The position numbers and the translations under genes are program-made. Of a DNA stretch of 15,239 bases, positions 1-14,994 are shown piece after piece. Numbering within the stretch: the stretch's first letter is position 1; each line of letters begins with the position of its first letter. The DNA is from Clostridia bacterium (GTDB taxonomy: Bacteria; Bacillota; Clostridia; Christensenellales; Aristaeellaceae): NCBI GenBank assembly GCA_030526225.1, contig JAUNDF010000033.1, positions 6,901 to 22,139 of the forward strand, read 5' to 3'. A model generated the notes under the pieces. It was not told the origin of the DNA. It saw only the letters and a program-made list of their open reading frames with translations, and searched no databases.

Positions 1-2
1 CC

Positions 3-206
3 CCTGAAGAAACCGCAACCCCTGAAGAAACCACTGCACCCGATGACACTGCCGCACCGGAAGCACCCGCTGCTGTGGTGCTGACCGATGAAGCCACCGG
101 CGTGTCGGTTTCCATCGAAGCAGAGCAGCTGGCAGAAGGCATTGTGCCTGTCCTGTCTGTTGAAGTGGCTGATGTGGAAATTGGGGGGGGCGGAAACCGA
201 ACGTGA
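3..206 (+). CDS. Giant cell-surface adhesin, upstream segment (5'-truncated by window edge; frame +3), terminated prematurely after a G8 tract
   Basis: Frame +3 is open from the window edge: PEETATPEETTAPDDTAAPEAPAAVVLTDEATGVSVSIEAEQLAEGIVPVLSVEVADVEIGGGGNRT*. The VLTDEATG...EGIVPVL motif is the same module start that recurs in frame +1 at 436, 799 and 1198. The frame reaches TGA at 204-206 only because of the 8-G run at 183-190. Confidence 0.7.
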   Translation, partial: PEETATPEETTAPDDTAAPEAPAAVVLTDEATGVSVSIEAEQLAEGIVPVLSVEVADVEIGGGGNRT

Positions 207-1587
207 CAGCCTGACCGGTCTGTCCTATGCAATCTCCCTGAAGGATGAAACCTCCGGTGAACCTGTTGCGGCAGAGGTGACCCTCTCTGTGCCTGTGGGG
301 GATAATCAGCTGCTGCTGGATGAAGAACTGCATGTGGTGGAATTGCCTGCTGCCATCATGCTGCCTGTAACCATTTATATCGTAGATTCTGATAAAACGG
401 CTGATGATGCCGAAGACGAAATCGCCCTGCTTGAAATGACCGACGAGGCCACCGGCCTGACGGCTGCCATCTCTGCCGATGCTCTGGCGGAGGGCATGGT
501 GCCTGTGCTGATGGTGGAGCAGACCGAAATCTACGAAGAGGAGCTGCCCGAGCTTGCAGACCTCTTTGATGGTGCACCTGTCAAGGCTTATGCTTTGGTG
601 GTGACCCTGATGGACGAAGTGACCGGCGAAACCATTGAGACCACGGCGAAGCTGTCACTGCCTGTTGAAGCCGGCACCCATCTGTATTATGCAAGCCTTG
701 CCACGGTGGAGGAGCAGCCCTTTATGGCTACCCTGCCCGTAACGCTGATTGTCGCGGCTGCCGAAGAGGAAGCTGCTGAGGAAGCACAGCCCATCGTATT
801 GACCGATGAAGCCACCGGCTTGACCGTTACCCTTGATGCCGCTGAAGTCGGCGAGGGCATTGTGCCTGTGCTGGCTGTGGAAGACCCCGCCGCTTATGAA
901 GCAAACGAAGAAGCTGATGCTGATACAACGGAAGAGGAAGAAGCACCCGAACAGCAGGTGTCCGGCAGCCTGTCCGGCGAAGCTGTAACGGCTTATTTCG
1001 TGCGCGTGTATGATGAAGCCACCGGCGAAAACCTGACTGTCAATGCGCTGGCAGAAATGCCTGTGGCGGATGATGCTGTGCTGTCCCTGGAGGATGGCAC
1101 GGTGATTACGGAGCAGCCCTTCGCCATCGTTTTGCCCGGCATGCTTTCCATCACCGCCAAGGTGGAGAATGCACAGCCCCAGCCCGCAACCTATGAGCTG
1201 ACCGATGAAGCCACCGGCGTGGTGGTTCGCTTTACGGCGGATGCACTGCCGGAAGGCATTCTGCCCGAGAATGTGGCCGTTACGGCGCAGCAGGTGGAGC
1301 TGGATGAGGACACCATTGCCGCCCTGACCGAGGCCGGCCGCACCATTTCCTATTATGTGGCCTATGATATTACCCTGCTGGACACCGCCACCGGCATGGC
1401 CTTTGAGCCTGTGGCACCCATCAGCGTGACCATGCCTGCCCAGCCGGAGAGCGAGGAGAACCCCCTGACCCTGGCCCATATCGATGACAACAAGACCATC
1501 GAGCAGCTGGATGCCTTTGACGTGGAAGATGGTCAGGTATCCTTCCAGGCGGAATCCTTCTCCGTGTATGTGCTGGCCGAGCAGGGC
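75..1587 (+). repeat. Four divergent tandem protein modules of about 120-135 aa (starts at about 75, 421, 793, 1192) in the adhesin N-terminal region
   Basis: The DNA word (c/t)tgaccgatgaagccaccggc recurs at 81-101, 799-819 and 1198-1218, with a variant accgacgaggccaccggc at 439-456. Each module has the form xLTDEATGxxVxxxAxxLxEG(I/M)(V/L)P + acidic linker + xxAYxxxVxLxDExTGExxxxxAxLxxPV. An 18-nt imperfect tandem (cccctgaagaaacc...) at 1-36 encodes PEETAT/PEETTA. Confidence 0.85.
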
Positions 1588-3936
1588 GAGACTCCGCTGA
1601 GCTATGAGTACAGTGTCCAATGGAGCAACGGCATCAGCGCCAGCGTGGTGGATTACAGCTACCGCGAAGAGAACGGCCGCCAGGTGCTGCATTTCCATCC
1701 GGCAACGAATGGCCCCAAGACTGCCACCCTTAACTTTCAGGTGACGGTGCACGGCTCCGACAACCTTTTTCTGGAGGTTGGCGCGGTGAAGGTGCGCGTG
1801 CCCAAAAACATCTTTACCGACCGGTACGGTACCACCAATGTGCTGGCGGATAATACCGCAAAGCCCGGATATGCTCCCTTTACAAGTTGGCAGCCTTCTC
1901 TTACATGGCAGCTGGTGGAGGCTCCCCAAGTCAGCAGTATTTGCGACTTTAACTATACGGAGGACCCCGCTGACCCCGACTACTACATTGTGACCAATTA
2001 CAAACGCCTGCCTGCCGGTGACAACCTGTTCTCGGTGGATATCGGCTACCGCTTTACCCCTACCCGCATTCAGGGCGGCTATGTGGTATCCGGTACCTAT
2101 GGCACAGCAGATGCCGTGTACGATACGGACAGTCACTTTGTCAAGGAAGTCCCCATCACCCTGACCATCGACAACAGTCAGGTGGATAATACAACGCCTG
2201 TTGTGACAGATACCATCTACAACAAGGTGGAGGTGCATACCCGCTCTGTCACCGCGGAAAGCAATCGCCAGCCCACCAAGTACACGGCCATGGCCGGCAA
2301 CGACCAGAACGGCGGCGTGTACATGGCATGGCAGTCCTCCTGGGGCAGCAAACCTGCCGATGCAGATGACTACTTCTATGTTATCTGGCAGGCAGATTTA
2401 AACCGCTACCATTACATGAGCCAGCCCTATGATATTCAGCTGGGCATGAAGGAAGGCACGCTGGCTGTTACTCCCTACAAGGAGTTTGTCAGCAAGCAGT
2501 ACCGCAATCCCCTGCAGAATGATGCCGGCAATGATATCACCTACAATGCCGAGCTGATTGGCGTAACCTATTACGGAAACGGCACCATAAAGAAAAATGA
2601 CGAAACCGGCGAGTTTGAAATGTACTATGGTCCCGGTTTTTCGGAAGGAGCTACCAGCACTGGCTTAAAAACGAAGGGCTATCAGGGAATTGCTTCCGGC
2701 GATTACCTGAGCCGCTTGTGCAAATTTGCCGCCATTGATGATCAGGATCAGGAGCATCCCGTCTATGAATACAGACGGCAATATACCAACAGTGTTAACT
2801 ACGGCGCTCAAAATTATTTGAGTTACGGCTTTTTGGTGCGCTATCCCAGAACCATGCTGGATGATGTTGACAGAATCTGGGGGACAGATGTGCTGTTGGG
2901 TGACGGCATTAAGCTGAAGCCCCCGGTGCTGACCTGGGAGGAAACCCCTCGTGACGGCGGCGCAAGCCGGAACGGCGAGTTTACCGGCAGCAGCCCAGTA
3001 ACCATTCGCCGGATTGCGAACGGCGGTGCTCCCGGCTTCAGCAAATTTATGTCCGAGAACGTTGCAAATGCTGATAACGGACCTACCAAGGGCGGTCAGG
3101 AAGCGCTGCTGAGAGGACTCACGGTTCACAGAGGCATGTATTACAATGTTGCCTCAAAGCCGCGCATCATGCCCAACTGGAATGCCGAAACACAGGAATA
3201 TTTCTTTGACAGCCCGTGGCGCACCATCATTACGGATGATGTGTCCCAAATGTATCTGCACTCCCGGCTGAAGGGCAGTACCATCAGCAATGCAAGGGCT
3301 GATTATGACAAGACATATGGCGGAAAAATCGCGCCTCCTGAGCAGCTGCAGGAGGGAGATGTTTATTTCTATAAAGTGGTCTTTTCCGGAAGCATTGCTG
3401 AATATGATGCCAGCTTTGCCGGGGGAGACTGGTCAATGGCTGCTGTTGCATCCACTGATTACGCAAAGTTGGCCAAGTATCCCTATGAAATATGGATTCG
3501 CTACGAGGGAACAAGCGAATTTGTGCATTATCAGGATTTGTGGCTTCGTGCAGGGAACAATTGCGGTACAATGGATGTCAAAACGCCTGACGGTACCATT
3601 GTGCAAAAGAACGTATTGCTTTCTGCCGGAACTACACTGCCTGACAAGGTATGCGGTGTAAAGGTGATTCACGACAGCGAATTCCTGAAGAGCACATATT
3701 CCTTCTTGTTTTATGCCCGTCTGCGAGGCACTGAACATGTCAGACAGCGTGTATTGCTGGATAAGGTGAACAGCCAGAATCCTGACATGGATACCTTTGA
3801 CGGAACCTACTGGACAGACTTCGGCAAATATGAAATAACACAGGCAGGCGCCGCACCCTATTACAATTATGAGTATGACAGCCTGGTTACCGGTGTTGCG
3901 GCACGTACCCGCCGATACGACCCCTTGGATGTGTAG
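88..3936 (+). CDS. Giant cell-surface adhesin, middle segment. Real frame +1 coding starts at about 190 after the G8 tract. Contains acidic-linker repeat modules, then a large unique beta-rich region
   Basis: 3.8-kb open frame. Track residues 1-34 (MKPPACRF...KLGG) are just the out-of-frame reading of the frame +3 module. From about 190 the protein (AETERDSLTGLSYAISLKDETSGEPV...) matches the second half of the repeated module. The modules have LTDEATG starts, E/D/A/P-rich linkers and a terminal ...FQAESFSVYVLA motif, typical of Firmicute surface proteins. No start codon, RBS or signal peptide is needed or visible. Ends at TAG 3934-3936. Confidence 0.85.
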   Translation: MKPPACRFPSKQSSWQKALCLSCLLKWLMWKLGGAETERDSLTGLSYAISLKDETSGEPVAAEVTLSVPVGDNQLLLDEELHVVELPAAIMLPVTIYIVDSDKTADDAEDEIALLEMTDEATGLTAAISADALAEGMVPVLMVEQTEIYEEELPELADLFDGAPVKAYALVVTLMDEVTGETIETTAKLSLPVEAGTHLYYASLATVEEQPFMATLPVTLIVAAAEEEAAEEAQPIVLTDEATGLTVTLDAAEVGEGIVPVLAVEDPAAYEANEEADADTTEEEEAPEQQVSGSLSGEAVTAYFVRVYDEATGENLTVNALAEMPVADDAVLSLEDGTVITEQPFAIVLPGMLSITAKVENAQPQPATYELTDEATGVVVRFTADALPEGILPENVAVTAQQVELDEDTIAALTEAGRTISYYVAYDITLLDTATGMAFEPVAPISVTMPAQPESEENPLTLAHIDDNKTIEQLDAFDVEDGQVSFQAESFSVYVLAEQGETPLSYEYSVQWSNGISASVVDYSYREENGRQVLHFHPATNGPKTATLNFQVTVHGSDNLFLEVGAVKVRVPKNIFTDRYGTTNVLADNTAKPGYAPFTSWQPSLTWQLVEAPQVSSICDFNYTEDPADPDYYIVTNYKRLPAGDNLFSVDIGYRFTPTRIQGGYVVSGTYGTADAVYDTDSHFVKEVPITLTIDNSQVDNTTPVVTDTIYNKVEVHTRSVTAESNRQPTKYTAMAGNDQNGGVYMAWQSSWGSKPADADDYFYVIWQADLNRYHYMSQPYDIQLGMKEGTLAVTPYKEFVSKQYRNPLQNDAGNDITYNAELIGVTYYGNGTIKKNDETGEFEMYYGPGFSEGATSTGLKTKGYQGIASGDYLSRLCKFAAIDDQDQEHPVYEYRRQYTNSVNYGAQNYLSYGFLVRYPRTMLDDVDRIWGTDVLLGDGIKLKPPVLTWEETPRDGGASRNGEFTGSSPVTIRRIANGGAPGFSKFMSENVANADNGPTKGGQEALLRGLTVHRGMYYNVASKPRIMPNWNAETQEYFFDSPWRTIITDDVSQMYLHSRLKGSTISNARADYDKTYGGKIAPPEQLQEGDVYFYKVVFSGSIAEYDASFAGGDWSMAAVASTDYAKLAKYPYEIWIRYEGTSEFVHYQDLWLRAGNNCGTMDVKTPDGTIVQKNVLLSAGTTLPDKVCGVKVIHDSEFLKSTYSFLFYARLRGTEHVRQRVLLDKVNSQNPDMDTFDGTYWTDFGKYEITQAGAAPYYNYEYDSLVTGVAARTRRYDPLDV
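183..190 (+). repeat. Homopolymeric G8 tract at the frame +3 to frame +1 junction of the adhesin gene
   Basis: Sequence is att GGGGGGGG cgg. The upstream module is in frame +3 and the downstream continuation is in frame +1. Seven or ten Gs would give one continuous frame. Confidence 0.95.
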
Positions 3937-3966
3937 ACAAGTATTACCAAGACTGTCACCGGTTCA

Positions 3967-6900
3967 GTGGTTGATAACCCGGCAACCGGCATACAGTCGC
4001 AAAATGTAAAATTCTATATCCAGCAGCGTGGCAATACCAGTGTAGCAGATGAAATCATGGACCCGGTTGTGCTGAAGGACGGCATCTTCTACGATTTGTT
4101 GCCCGGCGGCACTGAAGTCGATCCATCTACAGTGCGCGTGATTAACGGCAGTTCCTCAGCCAATGCACTTCCTTCCTCTGCGTACAGCGTATCCTTTGAT
4201 TATGACTGGCAGGCCACCGGCCAAACCATGATGATGGTTGAATTCCATCAGCCGGAGGAAAAACGCGCATGGTCTGCGGTGCGGGAAAATGCTATTCAGA
4301 CTATTCAGGTCACCTACACAATGACCAACAGCTACGATAACATCCGTGACCGCGGCATCAACGTGGTCAATACTGTTGGTTATCTGAACCTGAACGAACA
4401 AAGCATGGTAAATGCCGCTGCCGCATACAAGCTGAACAAAATTACCTTCCGGGATGCTTACCAAAGCCTGTATGATGCTCACCCCAATGATATGCTCTTC
4501 ACGCAGTGTTCCTTCAACTTTAAGCCCGTGGGCGTAAAGCAGACCGGCTACAGCAAGATGGTCAAGTCGGATACGGTTAATGTGTACAGCAGCAAGAGCC
4601 GTGCACTGCCCGGTGACAGCTACCGCTATTGGATTGGCTACACCACCGCCGGCAATACCACCGCCGACCGGATTGTCATCTACGATGAGCTGGAAACCTA
4701 TGTGAACACAGAAAACGGCACCCAAAGCGAATGGCAGGGCGTGCTGACCGGCGTGGATATCGGCGCTATCAAGGGCAAGGTCAGCTACTATGACGAGAGC
4801 GACCCCAATGCCGTGCCCGCTTATCTGGCACCGGTGGTGTATTATTCCACCCAGACCAACCCGGTGCGGAATGTGGATGACAGCTCTGTGTGGACCAGCG
4901 TGCGCCCGGCAAACCTTGCTTCTGTCAAGGCCATTGCCATTGACTGCCGCTACAACAGCGATGGCAGCGAATTCCGCCTTGGCCCCAGCAACACCGGCGA
5001 TGCCTACAACAAGCTGAACATTTACGTTACCATGAAGGCACCCACAGACAGCAATTTGTTCAACAAAACCACCATGAACGAGTCTGTGGTAACCGCCCGC
5101 ACCTACACCGGGTATGTACCCACGGCGGCAGCCGGCACGGAGACACTGTCTGCCCATTGCCAGCTGACACTGGTGGAGCCTGCGCTTTTCCTGCACAAGT
5201 GGCAAGGGAATGCCACATTGCCCACAAATGACCAGCCCAATGCTGACAACAGCGCACCTTGGCGCCAACAGATTTACAACCGCAGCGGCCTTTGGTATCG
5301 CATTCTGATTGCCAACACCGATGCCGAGCTGGAGTATAAACGCGTGGTGCTGGAGGATGATATCCCTGCCGGCATGAGCGTGAACCTGAGTGCCTCCAAG
5401 CAGTACATTTATACGCTGAAGGACCCCAATGTCAGCTACGATACGGGTACCAACCGCACCTACATTGTCAATGGTACTTTCTTGAGTACTGCCAACAGCT
5501 ACCTGGATGCGGAAGTAACGAAAAACGCAGACGGTACACAGCATGTGCGGGTGACCATCAACAAGATGAAGCCCGGTGTGTACTACGATATTCGCCTCAG
5601 CTGCAGCACCGCTTTCTCCTTTACCGACATGACCTATACAAACACGGCAAAGGTGACCTCCGTCAACGGCACTGCGGTAAACAAGGAATCCAATACCGTG
5701 GTCATGGATGGTGCTGTGCGCTATCAGGTGAACTACAACTATATCACCAAGGATGCAGCAAACAAGACCATTGAATACCCGCCGAATGGTCTGTATACCC
5801 CCAAGCCTGCCGCATCTGCCACCACACTGGCCTATGACGATGCCTACACCCTGGCCGATGTCAGCGCTACGGCAGATTACAAGGTCATCAACAAAGTCAA
5901 AACGCCCGGCACATGGCGTTTCCTTGGCTGGTACCGCTCAACTGCTGAAGCACAGGAGGCTTATGCCGCCGGTGCACCCACGACCAAGGCCATCAGCATG
6001 AACAAGGTGGCTGATTTCTTCGACCTGTCTGCTTGTGTTTCCGGTGATTACTATTTCGCCAATACAGGTAATGGAGCGACCAACTTTGCACAGGCCGTCA
6101 ACAACATTGCCGCCATTCAGGATACAGATGCCGGCAAGGTGAAGCTGTACCAGTGGAATGGGGGGGTGGTGACCACCAGTACCACGCTGCCCACACCCTG
6201 GACCTACTACATGCTGCCCGTGTATGGCTGCTACATTTTCGAGCCCACGGTGTACAGCATCAGCTATGTGGTAAACCCGGACAGCACCTGGGGCATTCCC
6301 GCAGGCTCTCCTGCCGTGGTTGATGCCCATACCAACCTTGCCTACCTGAGCAATACCACCCTGAAGGATGCCCTGTCGACCACCGTCACCTACGCCACCT
6401 CTGCCGCCACCGGCACGGATCAGGTGCCCGGCGTGTGGACCTTCACCGGCTGGCAGGATGAAAGCGGCAAGGCTGTGACCGAGGTCAACGGCATCAATCG
6501 CGACTGGACTGTATCCGGTCAGTGGACCTTTACACCCATCACCTACACCCTTGATTATTCCGTCAAGGCTGACCCTGTATGGGGCAAGCCTGCCGCAGAC
6601 AGAACCAAGGCAACCCCCGCACAGGTCACCGGCATCAACTGGGATGGCACAGTCACCCTTGCCGCAGGCCTGACCACCACGGACGGCAATGCGCGCCGCA
6701 GTGATGGTGAAAACGTCCCCGGCGTATGGTCCTTTGTGGGCTGGTCTGCGGATGAAGCCGCACTGGCCGCCGGCACAACCATCACCGCCAGCGAACACAT
6801 CAAGGAAAACCGCACCGTGTACGGCAAGTGGGTCTTTACGCCCACCACCTACAATGTGCATTATCAGGTTGCAGGGGACAGCACCTGGGGCATCCCCGAA

Positions 6901-9648
6901 GGCAATCCTGCTGCCTTTGATGATGCAAGCAATCCCTATGACTGGAAGGCCCGCGTAACCCTTGCCCAAAAGCAGACCACCGCATGGACCACAGTTAGCG
7001 GCGCGGCTGATGCCAAGCCCGGCACATGGGCCTTCTCCGGCTGGTATACCGATGCGGCCTACACCTACAATGCCGCAGATTTCAACATCACCGCAGACAA
7101 AACGCTGTATGGCTACTGGACCTTTACCGGTGATACCTATACGCTGGACTATGCTGTAAAGCCTGATGCTGTCTGGGGCAAGCCCCTTGAAAGCAAGACC
7201 ACGGCAACCCCTGCCAAGGTAACCGATATCGCATGGGACGGCTCTGTAACATTGGCTGCGGGGCTTAAGACCACCAGCGTCACTTCCGTCCGCAGTGACG
7301 GCGAGACAGTCCCCGGCGTATGGTCCTTTGTGGGCTGGGCCGCGGATGAAGCTGCCCTTACCGCCGGCACAACCATTACCGCCAGCGAACACATCAAGGA
7401 AAACCGTACGGTTTACGGTCAGTGGAAGTTCACACCGACCACCTATAACGTAAGCTATCAGGTGGAGGGTGATGCGCTGTACGGCATCCCCGAAGGCAAT
7501 CCCGCTTCCTTTGATGATACCAACAACCCCTACGACTGGAAGGATACCGTAACCGTCGCGCCTCTGCAGACCACTGCATGGACAACCTCCGACGGCACGG
7601 ATGCCGGCATGCCCGGCACCTGGTCCTTCAGCACTGCCTGGACCACAACGGATGCCTCTGTTTCCGGCGGCAGGTTCAGCATCACCAGGGACACTGTCCT
7701 GAAGGGTGCATGGCGCTTTAAGCCGACCCTGGGCAGCGTTAAGATGGATATGGGCGTTGTGGGTGTAACGGCAGACAAGAATCTGGAGTTCACCTACACC
7801 ATCACCCTGACCAGCCCCGTGGCAGGCACCAACCAAACCGGTACGCTGACCCTGCCCGGCAAGAGCGCTGTACCCATGACCTTTGTCCCCAATGGCAAGG
7901 GCGGCAGCGAGGCTGTGGCAACAGTTACCCTGAAGGGCGGCAATACCAAGCCCGCCGTGCTGGATGGCATTCCCGTGGGCACCTTCTGGAAGGCTGAATT
8001 CGTGCCGGATGAAAAGACGGGTCTGTATACCATCACCGGCACCGACAACCTGACCGGTACCATTCTGGCCGGTGAGGAAGCAAAGCTGATTCACTACGAG
8101 CACAGCATTGCCGCGCTGGATATGACCATGAATGTCTACGGCAACCTCTGCAGCGACAAGCATGAATTCACCTATACCATCACCCTGAAGGATGCAAACG
8201 GCAGCCCCGTTTCCGGCAGCTATCCGCTCAAGACCGGCAGCAAGTATCTGCCCGGCACCAGTGCGGCCGACAATCGCCTGACCTTCAAGGATGGCACGGC
8301 AACCGTGGTACTGCGCGACAGCCACAAGGAGCTGGATACGAATGATTACAAGATCATCGTGGATGGCCTGCCTGTGGGCGCAAGCTACACCACCGAATGC
8401 ATCGCCCTCGGTGCGGAAGGCTACTCCACCGCACTGACCTGCGGCAATACGCTCACGCCTGCCGCTGTGGAGCACATTGTGTACAAGCACGCACGCAGAG
8501 GCGGCGATCTGGACATCACCCTGAAGCTGAAGGGCAATGCCATTGAAAAGGACCGTGTCTTCACCTATACCGTAACCCTGAAGGAATCCGACGGCACCCT
8601 GATGAAGAACACGGCGGTGAAGGTGGTTCTGCCCGGCAGCAAAACGGAGACCGAACTGACCACCAACAACAACGGTGAGCTGGTCGTCAGCCTGATGGAC
8701 GGCCAGACGATGACGGTGAAGTATCTGCCTGCAGGTGCTGTGTTCAGCGCAGTCATTACGCAGGACAACAGCAGCCTCGGCTACGCTGTGGAAGCTGCCA
8801 AGCTGAACAACGCCGCGTATGCCGGCACCATCACCGGAACCATTGTGGAGCAGGGCATCCAGCACCTGGTCTATGTCCATCAGCGCAGCAACGGCTATCT
8901 GACCGTTGGCAAAACGGTAGAGTTTGCCGGAAGCAATACTGTACCGGGCCGCACCTTCACCCTGACCATTACACTGAAGGACAAGGACGGCAACAACGTG
9001 ACCGATACCTTCAGCGCGGTGTACAAGCGGCCCAAGCTGACAGACAAAACGAAGGATGTGACCTTTGTTGACGGTGTCGCCGCGGTCAACCTGCACCACA
9101 ACGAAACGGTGACCATCAACAATCTGCCTGTTCTTGCCGCCTATGAGGTGAACGAAACCAATCCCGACGGATACACGGTTTCCTGGGAGAACGAGCGCGG
9201 AACCATTCCCGCAGGCAGCGGCGTGACCGTCAAGTGCATCAACAGTGCCCGGCAGACCTACACAGCCTACACGGTGAAGAAGATCTGGAAGGACAACGAT
9301 GACGAGTTTGAGAAGCGCCCCGACAGCGTGACCATTACGGTAAAGGGCAGCGACGGCTATCGTGCAGAGCTGACACTGACCGAGGACAACGGTTGGCAGG
9401 CCGAAACTGAACAGCTGCCCACCCTGGATGATGACGCCAGACAGATTACCTACTCCTTCGCGGAGGAAAAGGTACCTGCCGGCTATCAGGTCAGCCTGAA
9501 GGTGGAAGGCACAACGATTACGGTCACCAACACGCTGCCCGGTGCAGACAAGCCTGTATCTCCCGAATTCGGTGAAATGCAGATTGAAGACAATACCATT
9601 CCTCTGGGTATGGGCATGAACATGAACGAAGGCGACTGCTTCGAGTAA
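3967..9648 (+). CDS. Giant cell-surface adhesin, distal segment (frame is open from 3937). DUF11-like domains, six SHIRT/Listeria-Bacteroides-repeat-like units, four SpaA/pilin-type domains, one Cna-B domain, unusual ...GDCFE C-terminus
   Basis: Same frame (+1) as 88..3936, separated only by TAG 3934-3936. Read through, the junction is ...RRYDPLDV[TAG]TSITKTVTGSVVDNPATG.... No Shine-Dalgarno sequence lies in the 30 nt before GTG 3967, and the N-terminus (MVDNPATGIQSQ) is not a signal peptide although the protein is clearly extracellular. SITKTVTG..(22 aa)..FYIQQRGNTSVADE(15 aa)..DLLPGGTEVDPSTVRV resembles a DUF11 conserved-repeat domain start. KKIWKDNDDEFEKRPDSVTITVKG...NGWQAE...ITYSFAEEKVPAGYQVS...TVTNT is a classic Cna-B signature. 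TAA at 9646-9648. Confidence 0.88.
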   Translation: MVDNPATGIQSQNVKFYIQQRGNTSVADEIMDPVVLKDGIFYDLLPGGTEVDPSTVRVINGSSSANALPSSAYSVSFDYDWQATGQTMMMVEFHQPEEKRAWSAVRENAIQTIQVTYTMTNSYDNIRDRGINVVNTVGYLNLNEQSMVNAAAAYKLNKITFRDAYQSLYDAHPNDMLFTQCSFNFKPVGVKQTGYSKMVKSDTVNVYSSKSRALPGDSYRYWIGYTTAGNTTADRIVIYDELETYVNTENGTQSEWQGVLTGVDIGAIKGKVSYYDESDPNAVPAYLAPVVYYSTQTNPVRNVDDSSVWTSVRPANLASVKAIAIDCRYNSDGSEFRLGPSNTGDAYNKLNIYVTMKAPTDSNLFNKTTMNESVVTARTYTGYVPTAAAGTETLSAHCQLTLVEPALFLHKWQGNATLPTNDQPNADNSAPWRQQIYNRSGLWYRILIANTDAELEYKRVVLEDDIPAGMSVNLSASKQYIYTLKDPNVSYDTGTNRTYIVNGTFLSTANSYLDAEVTKNADGTQHVRVTINKMKPGVYYDIRLSCSTAFSFTDMTYTNTAKVTSVNGTAVNKESNTVVMDGAVRYQVNYNYITKDAANKTIEYPPNGLYTPKPAASATTLAYDDAYTLADVSATADYKVINKVKTPGTWRFLGWYRSTAEAQEAYAAGAPTTKAISMNKVADFFDLSACVSGDYYFANTGNGATNFAQAVNNIAAIQDTDAGKVKLYQWNGGVVTTSTTLPTPWTYYMLPVYGCYIFEPTVYSISYVVNPDSTWGIPAGSPAVVDAHTNLAYLSNTTLKDALSTTVTYATSAATGTDQVPGVWTFTGWQDESGKAVTEVNGINRDWTVSGQWTFTPITYTLDYSVKADPVWGKPAADRTKATPAQVTGINWDGTVTLAAGLTTTDGNARRSDGENVPGVWSFVGWSADEAALAAGTTITASEHIKENRTVYGKWVFTPTTYNVHYQVAGDSTWGIPEGNPAAFDDASNPYDWKARVTLAQKQTTAWTTVSGAADAKPGTWAFSGWYTDAAYTYNAADFNITADKTLYGYWTFTGDTYTLDYAVKPDAVWGKPLESKTTATPAKVTDIAWDGSVTLAAGLKTTSVTSVRSDGETVPGVWSFVGWAADEAALTAGTTITASEHIKENRTVYGQWKFTPTTYNVSYQVEGDALYGIPEGNPASFDDTNNPYDWKDTVTVAPLQTTAWTTSDGTDAGMPGTWSFSTAWTTTDASVSGGRFSITRDTVLKGAWRFKPTLGSVKMDMGVVGVTADKNLEFTYTITLTSPVAGTNQTGTLTLPGKSAVPMTFVPNGKGGSEAVATVTLKGGNTKPAVLDGIPVGTFWKAEFVPDEKTGLYTITGTDNLTGTILAGEEAKLIHYEHSIAALDMTMNVYGNLCSDKHEFTYTITLKDANGSPVSGSYPLKTGSKYLPGTSAADNRLTFKDGTATVVLRDSHKELDTNDYKIIVDGLPVGASYTTECIALGAEGYSTALTCGNTLTPAAVEHIVYKHARRGGDLDITLKLKGNAIEKDRVFTYTVTLKESDGTLMKNTAVKVVLPGSKTETELTTNNNGELVVSLMDGQTMTVKYLPAGAVFSAVITQDNSSLGYAVEAAKLNNAAYAGTITGTIVEQGIQHLVYVHQRSNGYLTVGKTVEFAGSNTVPGRTFTLTITLKDKDGNNVTDTFSAVYKRPKLTDKTKDVTFVDGVAAVNLHHNETVTINNLPVLAAYEVNETNPDGYTVSWENERGTIPAGSGVTVKCINSARQTYTAYTVKKIWKDNDDEFEKRPDSVTITVKGSDGYRAELTLTEDNGWQAETEQLPTLDDDARQITYSFAEEKVPAGYQVSLKVEGTTITVTNTLPGADKPVSPEFGEMQIEDNTIPLGMGMNMNEGDCFE
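5716..7726 (+). repeat. Six tandem beta-repeat units of about 100 aa, SHIRT-like / Listeria-Bacteroides (Flg_new)-like
   Basis: Each unit begins Y(x)(V/L/I)xYxV and contains PG(T/V)W(x)F(x)GW followed by (V/L)YG(x)W(x)F(T)P. Example: YNVHYQVAGD...KPGTWAFSGWYTDAAYTYNAADFNITADKTLYGYWTFTG. The first unit carries a long insertion. Confidence 0.7.
6541..7728 (+). repeat. Direct tandem duplication of a 594-nt (198-codon, two-domain) unit: copy A 6541-7134, copy B 7135-7728
   Basis: There are identical runs at an exact 594-nt offset. gtccccggcgtatggtcctttgtgggctgg occurs at 6715-6744 and 7309-7338. accgccagcgaacacatcaaggaaaaccg occurs at 6784-6812 and 7378-7406. At protein level, YTLDYSVKADPVWGKP... 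matches YTLDYAVKPDAVWGKP.... Confidence 0.9.
7729..9246 (+). repeat. Four tandem SpaA / Cna-B-like (pilin-type, prealbumin-fold) domains of about 126-132 aa
   Basis: The core (E/V/T)FT(Y/L)T(I/V)TLK(D/E)xxG has its Phe codons at 7789, 8167, 8560 and 8956, giving spacings of 378, 393 and 396 nt. Each is followed by a G(L/I)P(V)G..(Y/W), LPAGAVF or NLPVLAAYEV motif, as in Gram-positive pilin and adhesin stalk domains. Confidence 0.65.
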
Positions 9649-9734: not shown

Positions 9735-11681
9735 ATGAAAAAGCGAATCGGCATCCTTCTTGCAGCAATCCTGCTTCTGGGCTGTCTGCCGGCTTTGGCA
9801 TGGCAGGATGTGCATGTTGAAAAAACAGCGGATAAGCCGCAGTCGCATATAACCGTGGGCAGCACAACCCGTGTGAACGGCATGTTTTTTACCAACCAAT
9901 TCGGCAACAATGCCAGCGATATTGATGTGCGGTCCATGCTGCACGGGTATAATCCCGTTGTGTGGGCATCGCAGGTTGAATTCTCTCTGGATCCGCAGGT
10001 TGTCGCCGACATGCACAAGACAATCAGCACGGACGGCAGCATGACCTATACCATCACCCTGCACAAAGACCTGAAGTGGAATGACGGTACGCCCATTCAT
10101 GCAGCTGACTATGTGTTTGCCTATCTGCTGCAGGCTTCTCCTGAATTCGCCGCGATTGGTGCCGATACGGCAGTGTGGCGGCATATCGTCGGCTACGAAG
10201 AATACGCCAACGGCAAGACTGACAATTTGCAGGGCGTGCGCCTGCTGGATGAGGACCGGTACAGCATCACCGTCAAAGCAGAATATGAGCCGTACTTCTA
10301 CGAATTCAGCTATCTGTCGGTCAATCCTTGCCCGATTGCGGTGATTGCCCCCGGATGCACCGTTGTGGACAGAGCAGCAGGTGCCGCCATTGTGGATGCG
10401 GATAACAACACCGCACAGACTGCTTTTACCGCGCAGCTGCTGGAAAGCACGGTGATGGGCGAAGAAGGCTACATGACCCATCCTGAACTGACCTGCGGCC
10501 CGTATTCGCTGGTTGCCTACGATGCGGCTTCCGGTCAGGTGGAATTTGAACGCAATGTGCTGTACAAGGGCAACTACGAGGGCGCAAAGCCTGCAATCGA
10601 TACGGTAACACTGGTGCCCGTGCTGCAGTCTTCCATGATTGATGACCTTCTGAGCGGGAAGGTTGATTTGCTCAACAAGGTTGCTTCCGAAAACACAATC
10701 AAGCAGGCCCGGAAAACGCTGAACAACAACCGGTTCAAGTTCCAAAGCTATGCCCGGCTTGGCTACGGCTTTGTGGCCATTGCCTGTGAGCAGGGCCCTC
10801 AGCAGTTTGAAAAGGTGCGTCAGGCACTGGCTTGCGTGATTGACAGCAAAGCCTTTGTGAAGAACTATCTTGGCGGCAGCGGCTTGACGGTAAAGGGCTA
10901 TTACGGCATCGGACAATGGATGAATCAGGCCGTGAATGGTTCTTACCGCCCTGAAAACATTGATGAAGCACAGCAAAAGCAGTGGGATGCGCTCAGCCTT
11001 GATGTGCTGGATGCATATGACTATGATGCAGAGCGTGCCCTCAATCTGCTGATTGAGGATGGCTGGGTGCTCAACGCTGACGGCGATGCGTTTGACCCCG
11101 CGAAGGATGACATCCGCTATAAGCAGCTGGAGGACGGCAGCCTGATGCCGCTGACCTTCCGCTTTGCTGTCACAAAGGATAATGCCGCCGCTGCGTATAT
11201 CGTTTCCGGTTTACAAAGTGTTTTGCCGGTGCTTGGTGCGCAGCTGGTGGAGACGGAAATTTCATTCACCGACTTGCTGAAGGCGTATTACCGTGAAGGC
11301 GGAAACCGTTCCTACGATCTTGCATTCATGGCAACCAACTTCATCAGCACCTTTGACCCCTACATGCATTTTGCTTCCGAAGCGGATTACGCCGGTGCCA
11401 TGAACACCAGCGGCATTGATGATGCATAGCTGCGGGCGCTGGCCTGGGAACTGCATACCACGGTGCCCGGTGATGAACTGGGCTACATGAAGCGCTGGAT
11501 TGCGTTCCAAAAGCGGTTTAATCAGGTATTGCCGACGATTCCTGTTTATTCCAACATCTATCAGGATATCCACATTGTCGGCTTGAAGAATTACCGCATC
11601 ACGGCCCAAACCAACTGGCCGGCAGCCCTGCTGTATGCAAATGTGGAGCAGTCTGCAAGCCAAACGCCGGCGATGAATTGA
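9735..11681 (+). CDS. ABC transporter substrate-binding lipoprotein, family 5 (peptide/oligopeptide/nickel type), interrupted by one in-frame TAG at 11427-11429
   Basis: AGGA at 9721-9724 lies 10 nt before the ATG. The signal peptide with lipobox is MKKRIGILLAAILLLGC. SBP_bac_5-like motifs are present: TITLHKDLKWNDGTPIHAADYVFAY, GKVDLLNKV, YGFVAIACEQGP and VRQALACVIDSKAF. After the TAG the same frame continues: LRALAWELHTTVPGDELGYMKRWIAFQKRFNQVLPTIPVYSNIYQDIHIVGLKNYRI.... That is the canonical C-terminal helix plus the (L)P(x)IP(L/V)Y strand of this family. The true stop is TGA at 11679-11681. The track splits this gene into 9735..11429 and 11463..11681, which share a frame. Confidence 0.88.
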
Positions 11682-11697
11682 TTGATGGCTTTACAAG

Positions 11698-11740
11698 AAG
11701 GGCCGCCTGCTGCAGCATGAAACTGTAACAAGCGGCCCTT
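11698..11740. terminator. Hairpin between convergent genes (possible bidirectional terminator)
   Basis: AAGGGCCGC (11698-11706) pairs with GCGGCCCTT (11732-11740) in a perfect 9-bp stem, but the loop is long (25 nt). T-containing tails flank it (tcgctt on plus, cttgtaaag on minus). It lies 17 nt after the SBP stop and 8 nt after the remnant stop. Confidence 0.4.
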
Positions 11741-11747
11741 TCGCTTA

Positions 11748-11990
11748 TCAGATATGAGAAGGAAGGATTTGCTTTGGGTATGCCGAACCGTATACAATAA
11801 TTGTATGGGGCCGCAGCACACGAACCATCTAATTGAGTCCGGTTTCAAACCGTTCGCGATCTTCCAACTTACGCGGACTGCCTCCAACCGTTCCAATTGC
11901 AACGACGCTATGAGTTGGAATGCCTACAAAACAATATCGGTAGCTTTCAGATGTTCCCCAACGAACGTTGTTGATGACGGGAATCTTCCG
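11748..11990 (-). pseudogene. 3' remnant of a DUF4417-like gene (no start codon; contains an in-frame TAG at 11829-11831)
   Basis: The minus-strand frame reads RKIPVINNVRWGTSESYRYCFVGIPTHSVVAIGTVGGSPRKLEDRERFETGLN[TAG]MVRVLRPHTIIVYGSAYPKQILPSHI* followed by TGA TAA. The IPVINNVRWGT...CF.GIP..S.VAIGT...GL..M...L.P.TIIVYGS pattern matches my recollection of DUF4417 family C-terminal halves. This is from memory and unverified. The remnant begins immediately after the flavodoxin stop, in the same frame. Confidence 0.4.
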
Positions 11991-14886: not shown

Positions 14887-14994
14887 ATGCAGATGATGAA
14901 AACATACTTGGCTACCGCTTCCAACGGTTGGCATGCCATTGTGGTGAATGGCCAGGTGGGCTGGGTGTCCGGGAAATACAGTCGCATGATTTGA
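14887..14994 (+). CDS. Small ORF (35 aa) resembling the C-terminal strands of a bacterial SH3 domain. Either a gene remnant or a small protein
   Basis: MQMMKTYLATASNGWHAIVVNGQVGWVSGKYSRMI* matches the SH3b ending NGW.(K/I)...NG.(T)GWVS.KY. There is no good RBS. A terminator follows 7 nt later. The preceding frame-0 stretch encodes a TM-like segment (LLIILTVLVLLVIIILAVFV), so a frameshifted membrane-anchored SH3 protein is an alternative. Confidence 0.3.
   Translation: MQMMKTYLATASNGWHAIVVNGQVGWVSGKYSRMI

Follow-up and report, generated by a model that had tools for sequence, protein, structure and literature searches.

An in-frame amber codon in a family-5 substrate-binding protein gene of an uncultured gut-type Clostridia bacterium, probably a nonsense allele in a decaying surface module

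The gene for a substrate-binding protein (SBP) of an uncultured gut-type Clostridia bacterium is interrupted by an in-frame amber codon, which probably represents one of several genuine nonsense alleles in a surface module that has recently begun to decay. The source DNA is a 22,139-nt contig of a metagenome-assembled genome (MAG) from NCBI (GCA_030526225.1, JAUNDF010000033.1); the window, that is, the whole stretch of DNA that was analysed, comprises its positions 6,901 to 22,139 (15,239 nt). Read from the ATG at 9735, the SBP frame meets a TAG at 11427-11429 after 564 codons (local DNA gatgatgcaTAGctgcgggc), continues in frame for 83 sense codons and ends at a TGA at 11679-11681; the interruption thus falls at codon 565 of 648, and a read-through product would have 648 aa. 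The T at 11427 is reproducible, being the same in two assemblies made with different software, the NCBI MAG and a k-mer based Logan assembly (k=31; run SRR24915835, contig SRR24915835_2329, 19,590 nt). The SBP gene and its surroundings comprise the following features:

9735-11426, plus strand: part of the SBP gene before the stop, 564 codons (open reading frame (ORF) list and translation; PF00496; AlphaFold2 (AF2) and Foldseek)
11427-11429, plus strand: in-frame amber codon 565, the same in the Logan contig; the homologue column holds E in 30, K in 18 and Q in 10 of 79 loci
11430-11681, plus strand: 83 in-frame codons and the TGA, homologous to the C-terminal segment of SBPs; helices 567-574 and 581-598, strand 601-614
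11697-11741, plus strand: terminator-like hairpin, 16 nt past the TGA (fold of 11676-11760: -28.7 kcal/mol, z -3.1)

The hairpin shows where the transcription unit originally ended. A preliminary description, made from the sequence alone, had located the TAG within a family-5 SBP gene, and its frame, its coordinates and its local DNA, gcaTAGctgc, are all confirmed. The loss of 84 residues reported there is likewise correct, provided that the position of the TAG itself is counted, and the downstream frame is open for the C-terminal segment as described, running exactly to the end of the homologous genes. The peptide encoded beyond the TAG, which contains GYMKRWIAFQKRFNQVLPTIPVYSNIYQDIH, is present as stated; the spacing of its aromatic residues, given as Y-x5-F, was off by one and reads Y-x6-F.

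The segment beyond the TAG is conserved to the same degree as the remainder of the gene. A database search with the SBP returned 511 homologues, all of which cover the C-terminus, the nearest being only 54% identical. The TAG column was read in 40 aligned homologues and in 79 loci from GTDB species genomes (119 in total), and the residues that relatives carry there, a point raised in the preliminary description, are E, K or Q: E occurs in 18, Q in 10 and K in 5 of the 40 aligned homologues, and the codons of the 79 loci include GAG (21), AAG (14), CAG (9) and GAA (9), with no stops. GAG, AAG and CAG, each one mutational step from TAG, together account for 44 of the 79 loci, and to judge from this column the ancestral base at 11427 need not have been C. 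Homologues that genuinely end at the TAG position would have spoken for a natural terminus; none of the 119 does so, the shorter database entries also do not stop there, and no split SBP was seen among the homologues examined. Identity to the homologues is 0.50 after the TAG vs 0.51 before it. All nine invariant tail residues (W588, P600, P603, Y605, Y609, D611, Y620, W628 and A631) are kept, and of the 24 columns beyond the TAG that are strongly conserved, the SBP deviates at a single one, where the median homologue deviates at 2.

By sequence and predicted fold, the SBP belongs to the family-5 (cluster C) peptide/nickel substrate-binding proteins. The read-through protein matches PF00496 (SBP_bac_5) over residues 96-542 with 119.2 bits (E 2.9e-34), far above the gathering score of 32.4 bits that served as cut-off, and its N-terminus, MKKRIGILLAAILLLGC, read by eye rather than with a predictor, combines a hydrophobic core with an LLGC lipobox-like motif. 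The AF2 model has a mean predicted local distance difference test score (pLDDT) of 90.4 and a predicted template-modelling (TM) score, pTM, of 0.87; residues 566-640, with pLDDT 87-97, form two helices and a long strand. Foldseek aligned this model to AppA (1xoc, E 6.2e-33) and OppA (3drf, E 4e-30) with a target-normalised TM score of 0.86, the matches to AppA 1xoc and OppA structures spanning about E 1e-33 to 1e-30. Bacillus subtilis AppA (1xoc), Lactococcus lactis OppA (3drf) and OppA 9p48 share PF00496, the predicted fold and a signal peptide with the SBP, and its C-terminal strand (LP.IP.YSN.Y.D) aligns to the end of OppA 9p48. In contrast to these solved cluster C proteins, to which it is only 14-20% identical, the SBP is interrupted by a TAG and has no adjoining ABC permease or ATPase genes.

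The lost segment is, in this model, an integral part of the cluster C binding-protein fold. The TAG is predicted to remove such a part because the tail is conserved, the family profile aligns up to the very C-terminus of the solved OppA 9p48, the model is confident and the AppA and OppA matches agree with it. The earlier placement of the TAG in a conserved C-terminal lobe therefore stands as regards conservation and structural role, but the PF00496 model ends at about residue 542, and the conserved C-terminal element lies outside it. If the TAG at 11427 arose recently by a single-step mutation of GAG, AAG or CAG and is read as a stop, translation would end at residue 564 and the product would be without the two helices and the long PTIPVYSN strand. 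Lacking this C-terminal segment, it would be non-functional, because the segment completes what we take, from the domain layout of OppA, to be the bilobed fold and its hinge. Probably, translation does stop at the TAG, the shortened product has no activity and the mutation arose recently.

The gene directly upstream of the SBP gene encodes a giant surface protein and is itself damaged:

1-9648, plus strand: window part of the giant surface-protein gene (approximately 3480 codons; SHIRT, DUF7601, Cna_B), with two lesions
183-190, plus strand: G8 run with a +1 frameshift, the longest G run of the contig; G7 would restore the frame
3934-3936, plus strand: second in-frame TAG, inside the giant gene, joining ORFs 88-3936 and 3967-9648 in one frame
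9598-9645, plus strand: C-terminal tail of the giant protein, IPLGMGMNMNEGDCFE, retained by relatives, where it immediately precedes the SBP gene

The start of the giant gene, which has a ribosome-binding site and a signal peptide, lies outside the window, 805 nt upstream, in a frame different from that of the main ORFs. The ORF 3967-9648 has neither a ribosome-binding site nor a signal peptide and lies in the same frame as ORF 88-3936; in 10 of the 12 closest loci tabulated, the corresponding upstream gene is one unbroken ORF of >3200 codons. No homologue of the giant protein spans the TAG at 3934 at E <= 0.001. The G8 run has the same length in both assemblies; candidate explanations for it are phase variation by strand slippage, a lesion that has become fixed and a miscalled homopolymer.

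The pairing of the two genes is conserved. The gene immediately preceding the SBP gene ends in a tail of the form PLGG.INMNEGDCF[NDE] in 28 of 60 related loci, among them 15 of the 17 closest, and in the conserved pair the giant gene and the SBP gene are 50-300 nt apart (loci L002-L078). The tail of the giant protein contains no transmembrane segment and no LPXTG motif, and no NCBIfam or Pfam model describes it. Neither the 22.2-kb contig nor the ten downstream genes checked across seven relatives encode a permease or ATPase of an ABC transporter. This makes the SBP-like protein an orphan, partnered with the giant protein in a two-gene surface module, and its peptide-binding fold may hold or process the giant-protein tail. 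Given this conserved synteny, joint decay or loss of both genes is plausible. Because the giant gene carries the G8 frameshift and an amber codon of its own, the module formed by the giant Cna_B/DUF7601/SHIRT protein and its orphan SBP-like partner would appear to be in the course of being lost in this lineage.

The possibility that the interruption is functional, with a 564-aa product that works alone, or with programmed read-through or a separate C-terminal piece giving a regulated or split protein, is exceedingly improbable. The downstream frame is indeed intact, and within it an ORF of 72 codons begins with the GTG at 11463; this GTG, however, is not preceded by a Shine-Dalgarno sequence, RNA folds after either TAG are not significant (z -1.5 to -1.7) and have no Rfam match, no homologue is split or ends at the TAG column, and the part that would be dispensed with is core fold. 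A recoding RNA element after the TAGs was dropped as a candidate on the same folding and Rfam results and for want of a common motif. A gene on the opposite strand at the TAG was also considered and dropped, the antisense ORFs there being without a family match.

The preliminary description had treated the TAG as an isolated event. This does not hold, since three further in-frame TAGs and the frameshift were found in the same material. Besides the codon at 3934, one TAG lies downstream of the SBP gene in the window:

11751-11990, minus strand: C-terminal remnant of a DUF4417 gene, 80 codons (PF14386 E 2.8e-17, profile positions 102-171 of 183)
11829-11831, minus strand: third in-frame TAG, within the DUF4417 remnant; E at this column in three plasmid homologues

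The remnant directly follows the TGA of the flavodoxin gene, in the same frame, and is without profile positions 1-101. Upstream of the window, the first 77 codons of a GT2-GH3 gene are missing, and what is left adjoins an APH gene truncated at its 3' end (locus L082, about 845-856), the kinase of which measures 208 aa against the expected 305-325 or so. The missing 5' codons and the abutting truncated APH gene indicate a deletion and fusion; the unbroken order APH, GT2-GH3, APH, MatE is present in a second MAG. The nearest relative of the contig's GT2-GH3 gene (61% identity) lies in this other MAG of the same run (GC content 43%), and there the gene is in turn split by an in-frame TAG (L084 353-355, which equals L086 4114-4116; GCA_030526295.1, JAUNDA010000084.1). 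The column holds Q in 8 of 12 homologues, the gene of the present contig among them, and the region is identical in sequence in GCA_030526295.1 and in Logan. The second-MAG contig also carries WhiA and HPr genes, and its other six terminators are TAA or TGA. A 35-codon ORF at 14887-14994 of the window, ending in NGQVGWVSGKYSRMI, resembles the last strands of a bacterial SH3 domain, at a Pfam E of only 0.06-0.13; to judge from its sequence, it may be another gene remnant.

A rival explanation holds that the T at 11427 is an artefact of sequencing, base-calling or assembly and that the real gene is intact; the preliminary description had put forward a methylation-linked miscall, C being read as T, as an alternative. 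It is true of the local sequence that a C at 11427 would create CAGCTG, and it would restore Gln, the residue of 10 of the 79 relatives. Furthermore, some sequencing platforms produce errors like the G8 frameshift, and both assemblies may stem from the same reads, so that a systematic read error is conceivable. Against this, the Logan contig encodes the exact 564-aa product and differs from the window at 1 of 12,595 bases, and the NCBI MAG contigs and Logan agree at every TAG, including all three in the window. The sole difference, at 2487, is T in the window and C in Logan and falls on a third codon position; it shows that neither assembly was copied from the other and that there is slight polymorphism in the population. 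That a k=31 assembly produced long contigs of identical sequence implies that the reads were accurate. Of the 69 homopolymer runs of at least 5 bases counted in the contig, only the longest G run was found to be accompanied by a frameshift.

The methylation idea in particular finds no echo elsewhere in the sequence. CAGCTG is intact at 15 sites in the window and at 23 in the 22.2-kb contig, and no C-to-T pattern is seen at them; the copy at 11427 is the only TAGCTG on the plus strand of the contig; the one variant in reverse complement that could be tested, CAGCTA at 10307, codes for a conserved Tyr; and the giant gene and the SBP gene, the operon genes counted, are free of CTA codons. The other in-frame TAGs stand in different contexts (GTGTAGACA, AATTAGATG, TTATAGTTT). 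A transition beside a palindromic motif would fit the consensus errors that nanopore assemblies show at methylation motifs; unlike in such errors, the motif here is intact at 23 sites, the same base appears in the k-mer assembly and the other TAGs are off-motif. The intact sites, the differing contexts and the agreement of Logan on the T led to the CAGCTG methylation artefact being dropped. Deamination, as in ancient-DNA damage, and hypermutation were dropped as well: the seven deviations of the SBP at conserved columns include no C-to-T or G-to-A change, and most homologues deviate more than the SBP does. Taken as a whole, an artefact is very unlikely. Other samples or strains of the organism yielded no second cluster at >=55% identity and no contig encoding the exact protein beyond the one Logan run; Joint Genome Institute (JGI) metagenomes gave no match to the organism's sequence, and a literature search on the run and assembly accessions found nothing.

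With the base accepted, the nonsense alleles can be weighed as ordinary decay. The likeness to ordinary nonsense pseudogenes lies in a single-step amber mutation at a non-critical polar column, in the neighbouring lesions and in the intact relatives. Three lesions on the same contig are beyond rescue by any change of code, namely the G8 frameshift, the GT2-GH3/APH deletion and the DUF4417 remnant. The relatives use the standard code, with unbroken SBP and giant ORFs and with TAG terminators in use. Random nonsense mutations in these genes would yield TAG in ~55% of cases, and ~3% of all substitutions would be nonsense, both figures being approximate owing to double counting of codons in the giant gene's first part; TAG makes up 11-15% of stops in relatives. 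Amber-only stops and the lack of TAG terminators are therefore individually unremarkable.

Several observations nevertheless weigh against decay as the sole explanation. The in-frame stops found, four in number, are without exception TAG (three in this contig, one in the second MAG, which looks unrelated), never TAA or TGA, and TAG does not figure among the 17 genuine terminators counted in the two contigs, which are TAA or TGA, an outcome with a chance of ~0.1 at the usage of the relatives. The three TAG columns that can be aligned are all of the E/Q/K type, never Y or W. A single frameshift accompanies the nonsense codons, whereas in decaying genes frameshifts usually outnumber nonsense lesions. 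Of the 202 columns that are strongly conserved, the SBP as a whole deviates at only 7, where the median homologue deviates at 13.5, and it shows no other relaxation of constraint. Unlike in ordinary pseudogenes, then, all stops are amber, the flanks are without drift and a second organism is also amber-interrupted. Amber-only stops, the lack of TAG terminators, the E/Q/K-type columns and the scarcity of frameshifts each carry little weight singly. Jointly these coincidences are uncomfortable, with a rough probability of the order of 1e-3 under random decay. The interruption itself is of a well-known kind; its only unusual aspect is the amber-only pattern in two genomes of one sample.

In a rival reading, TAG is decoded as sense in these organisms, whether by a suppressor tRNA of chromosomal or prophage origin, through pyrrolysine (Pyl), or by incipient or complete reassignment; full-length products would then be made of the SBP, of the GT2-GH3 protein of the second MAG and, provided that the G-run is in phase, of the giant protein. 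The amber-only stops, found across a pair of MAGs from the same sample, the absence of TAG among the terminators, the columns (E/K/Q in the SBP, Q in GT2-GH3, E in DUF4417), the intact sequence past each TAG, with the SBP equally conserved on both sides, and the weakness of the artefact explanations all speak for it. Yet a scan of 30.7 kb in all (the window, L082 and L086) contained no tRNA genes, the same contig has the frameshift, the deletion and the remnant that decoding would not rescue, and one of the TAGs sits within the DUF4417 remnant, which is dead anyway. The columns do not converge on one amino acid, only 3 TAGs occur in roughly 7,000 codons, and relatives of ~50% identity use the standard code. 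In-frame TAG density amounts to 3 in 22.2 kb and 1 in 8.5 kb of the second MAG, a small sample that includes the one in the dead remnant. The two MAGs are 10 GC points apart, which makes a shared lineage trait doubtful, and no phage hallmark genes were seen. Decoding of TAG is, on this balance, unlikely, though it deserves to be taken seriously as a minority reading.

All known bacterial code changes reassign UGA (PMC8629427), and bacterial chromosomal UAG reassignment is not on record, none having been found in the literature searched. Genetic code 15, in which TAG stands for Gln, is known from phages of the human and animal gut (bioRxiv 10.1101/2022.01.06.475225; PMC10607447; PMC10879173). 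The present loci resemble those phages in having in-frame TAGs at Q-like columns of otherwise intact genes and in not using TAG as a terminator. In contrast to them, the context is chromosomal, with WhiA and HPr on the second contig and TetR, AraC, flavodoxin, MatE and the SBP on this one, there are neither phage structural genes nor a suppressor tRNA in the DNA examined, and TAG density is very low. A recoded phage or prophage context was dropped as a candidate: PHROGs gave only regulator and unknown-function matches and no structural genes, and the DNA pattern is absent from IMG/VR. In Pyl-decoding Clostridia and archaea, UAG occasionally appears neutrally in ordinary genes. Such organisms are comparable in that they include members of the class Clostridia, UAG is rare as a stop and tolerated in frame, and K is frequent in the SBP column; unlike in Pyl decoders, pyl genes and methylamine methyltransferases were not seen here, and Pyl users are not known to show three in-frame UAGs within 15 kb. 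That two co-occurring uncultured Clostridia/Eubacteriales decode UAG in chromosomal genes, with a suppressor tRNA possibly acquired from TAG-recoded phages, with Pyl or by incipient reassignment, is rather doubtful. If true, UAG would for the first time be shown to stand for an amino acid in bacterial chromosomes outside the Pyl enzymes, and if the amber-only pattern held genome-wide, it would mean UAG decoding in free-living gut-type bacteria, of a kind that current gene callers and code screens would miss.

Should the interruption instead be a plain nonsense allele, the reading preferred here, the consequence for the genome would be a matter of annotation only: the SBP and giant genes would be pseudogenes, and the former would not encode a 564-aa protein. 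The locus would then exemplify a surface module in the course of being discarded. Independently of its fate in this organism, the conserved pairing of an orphan SBP with giant proteins whose tail reads NMNEGDCF[NDE] suggests a partnership not yet described, which is worth a study of its own.

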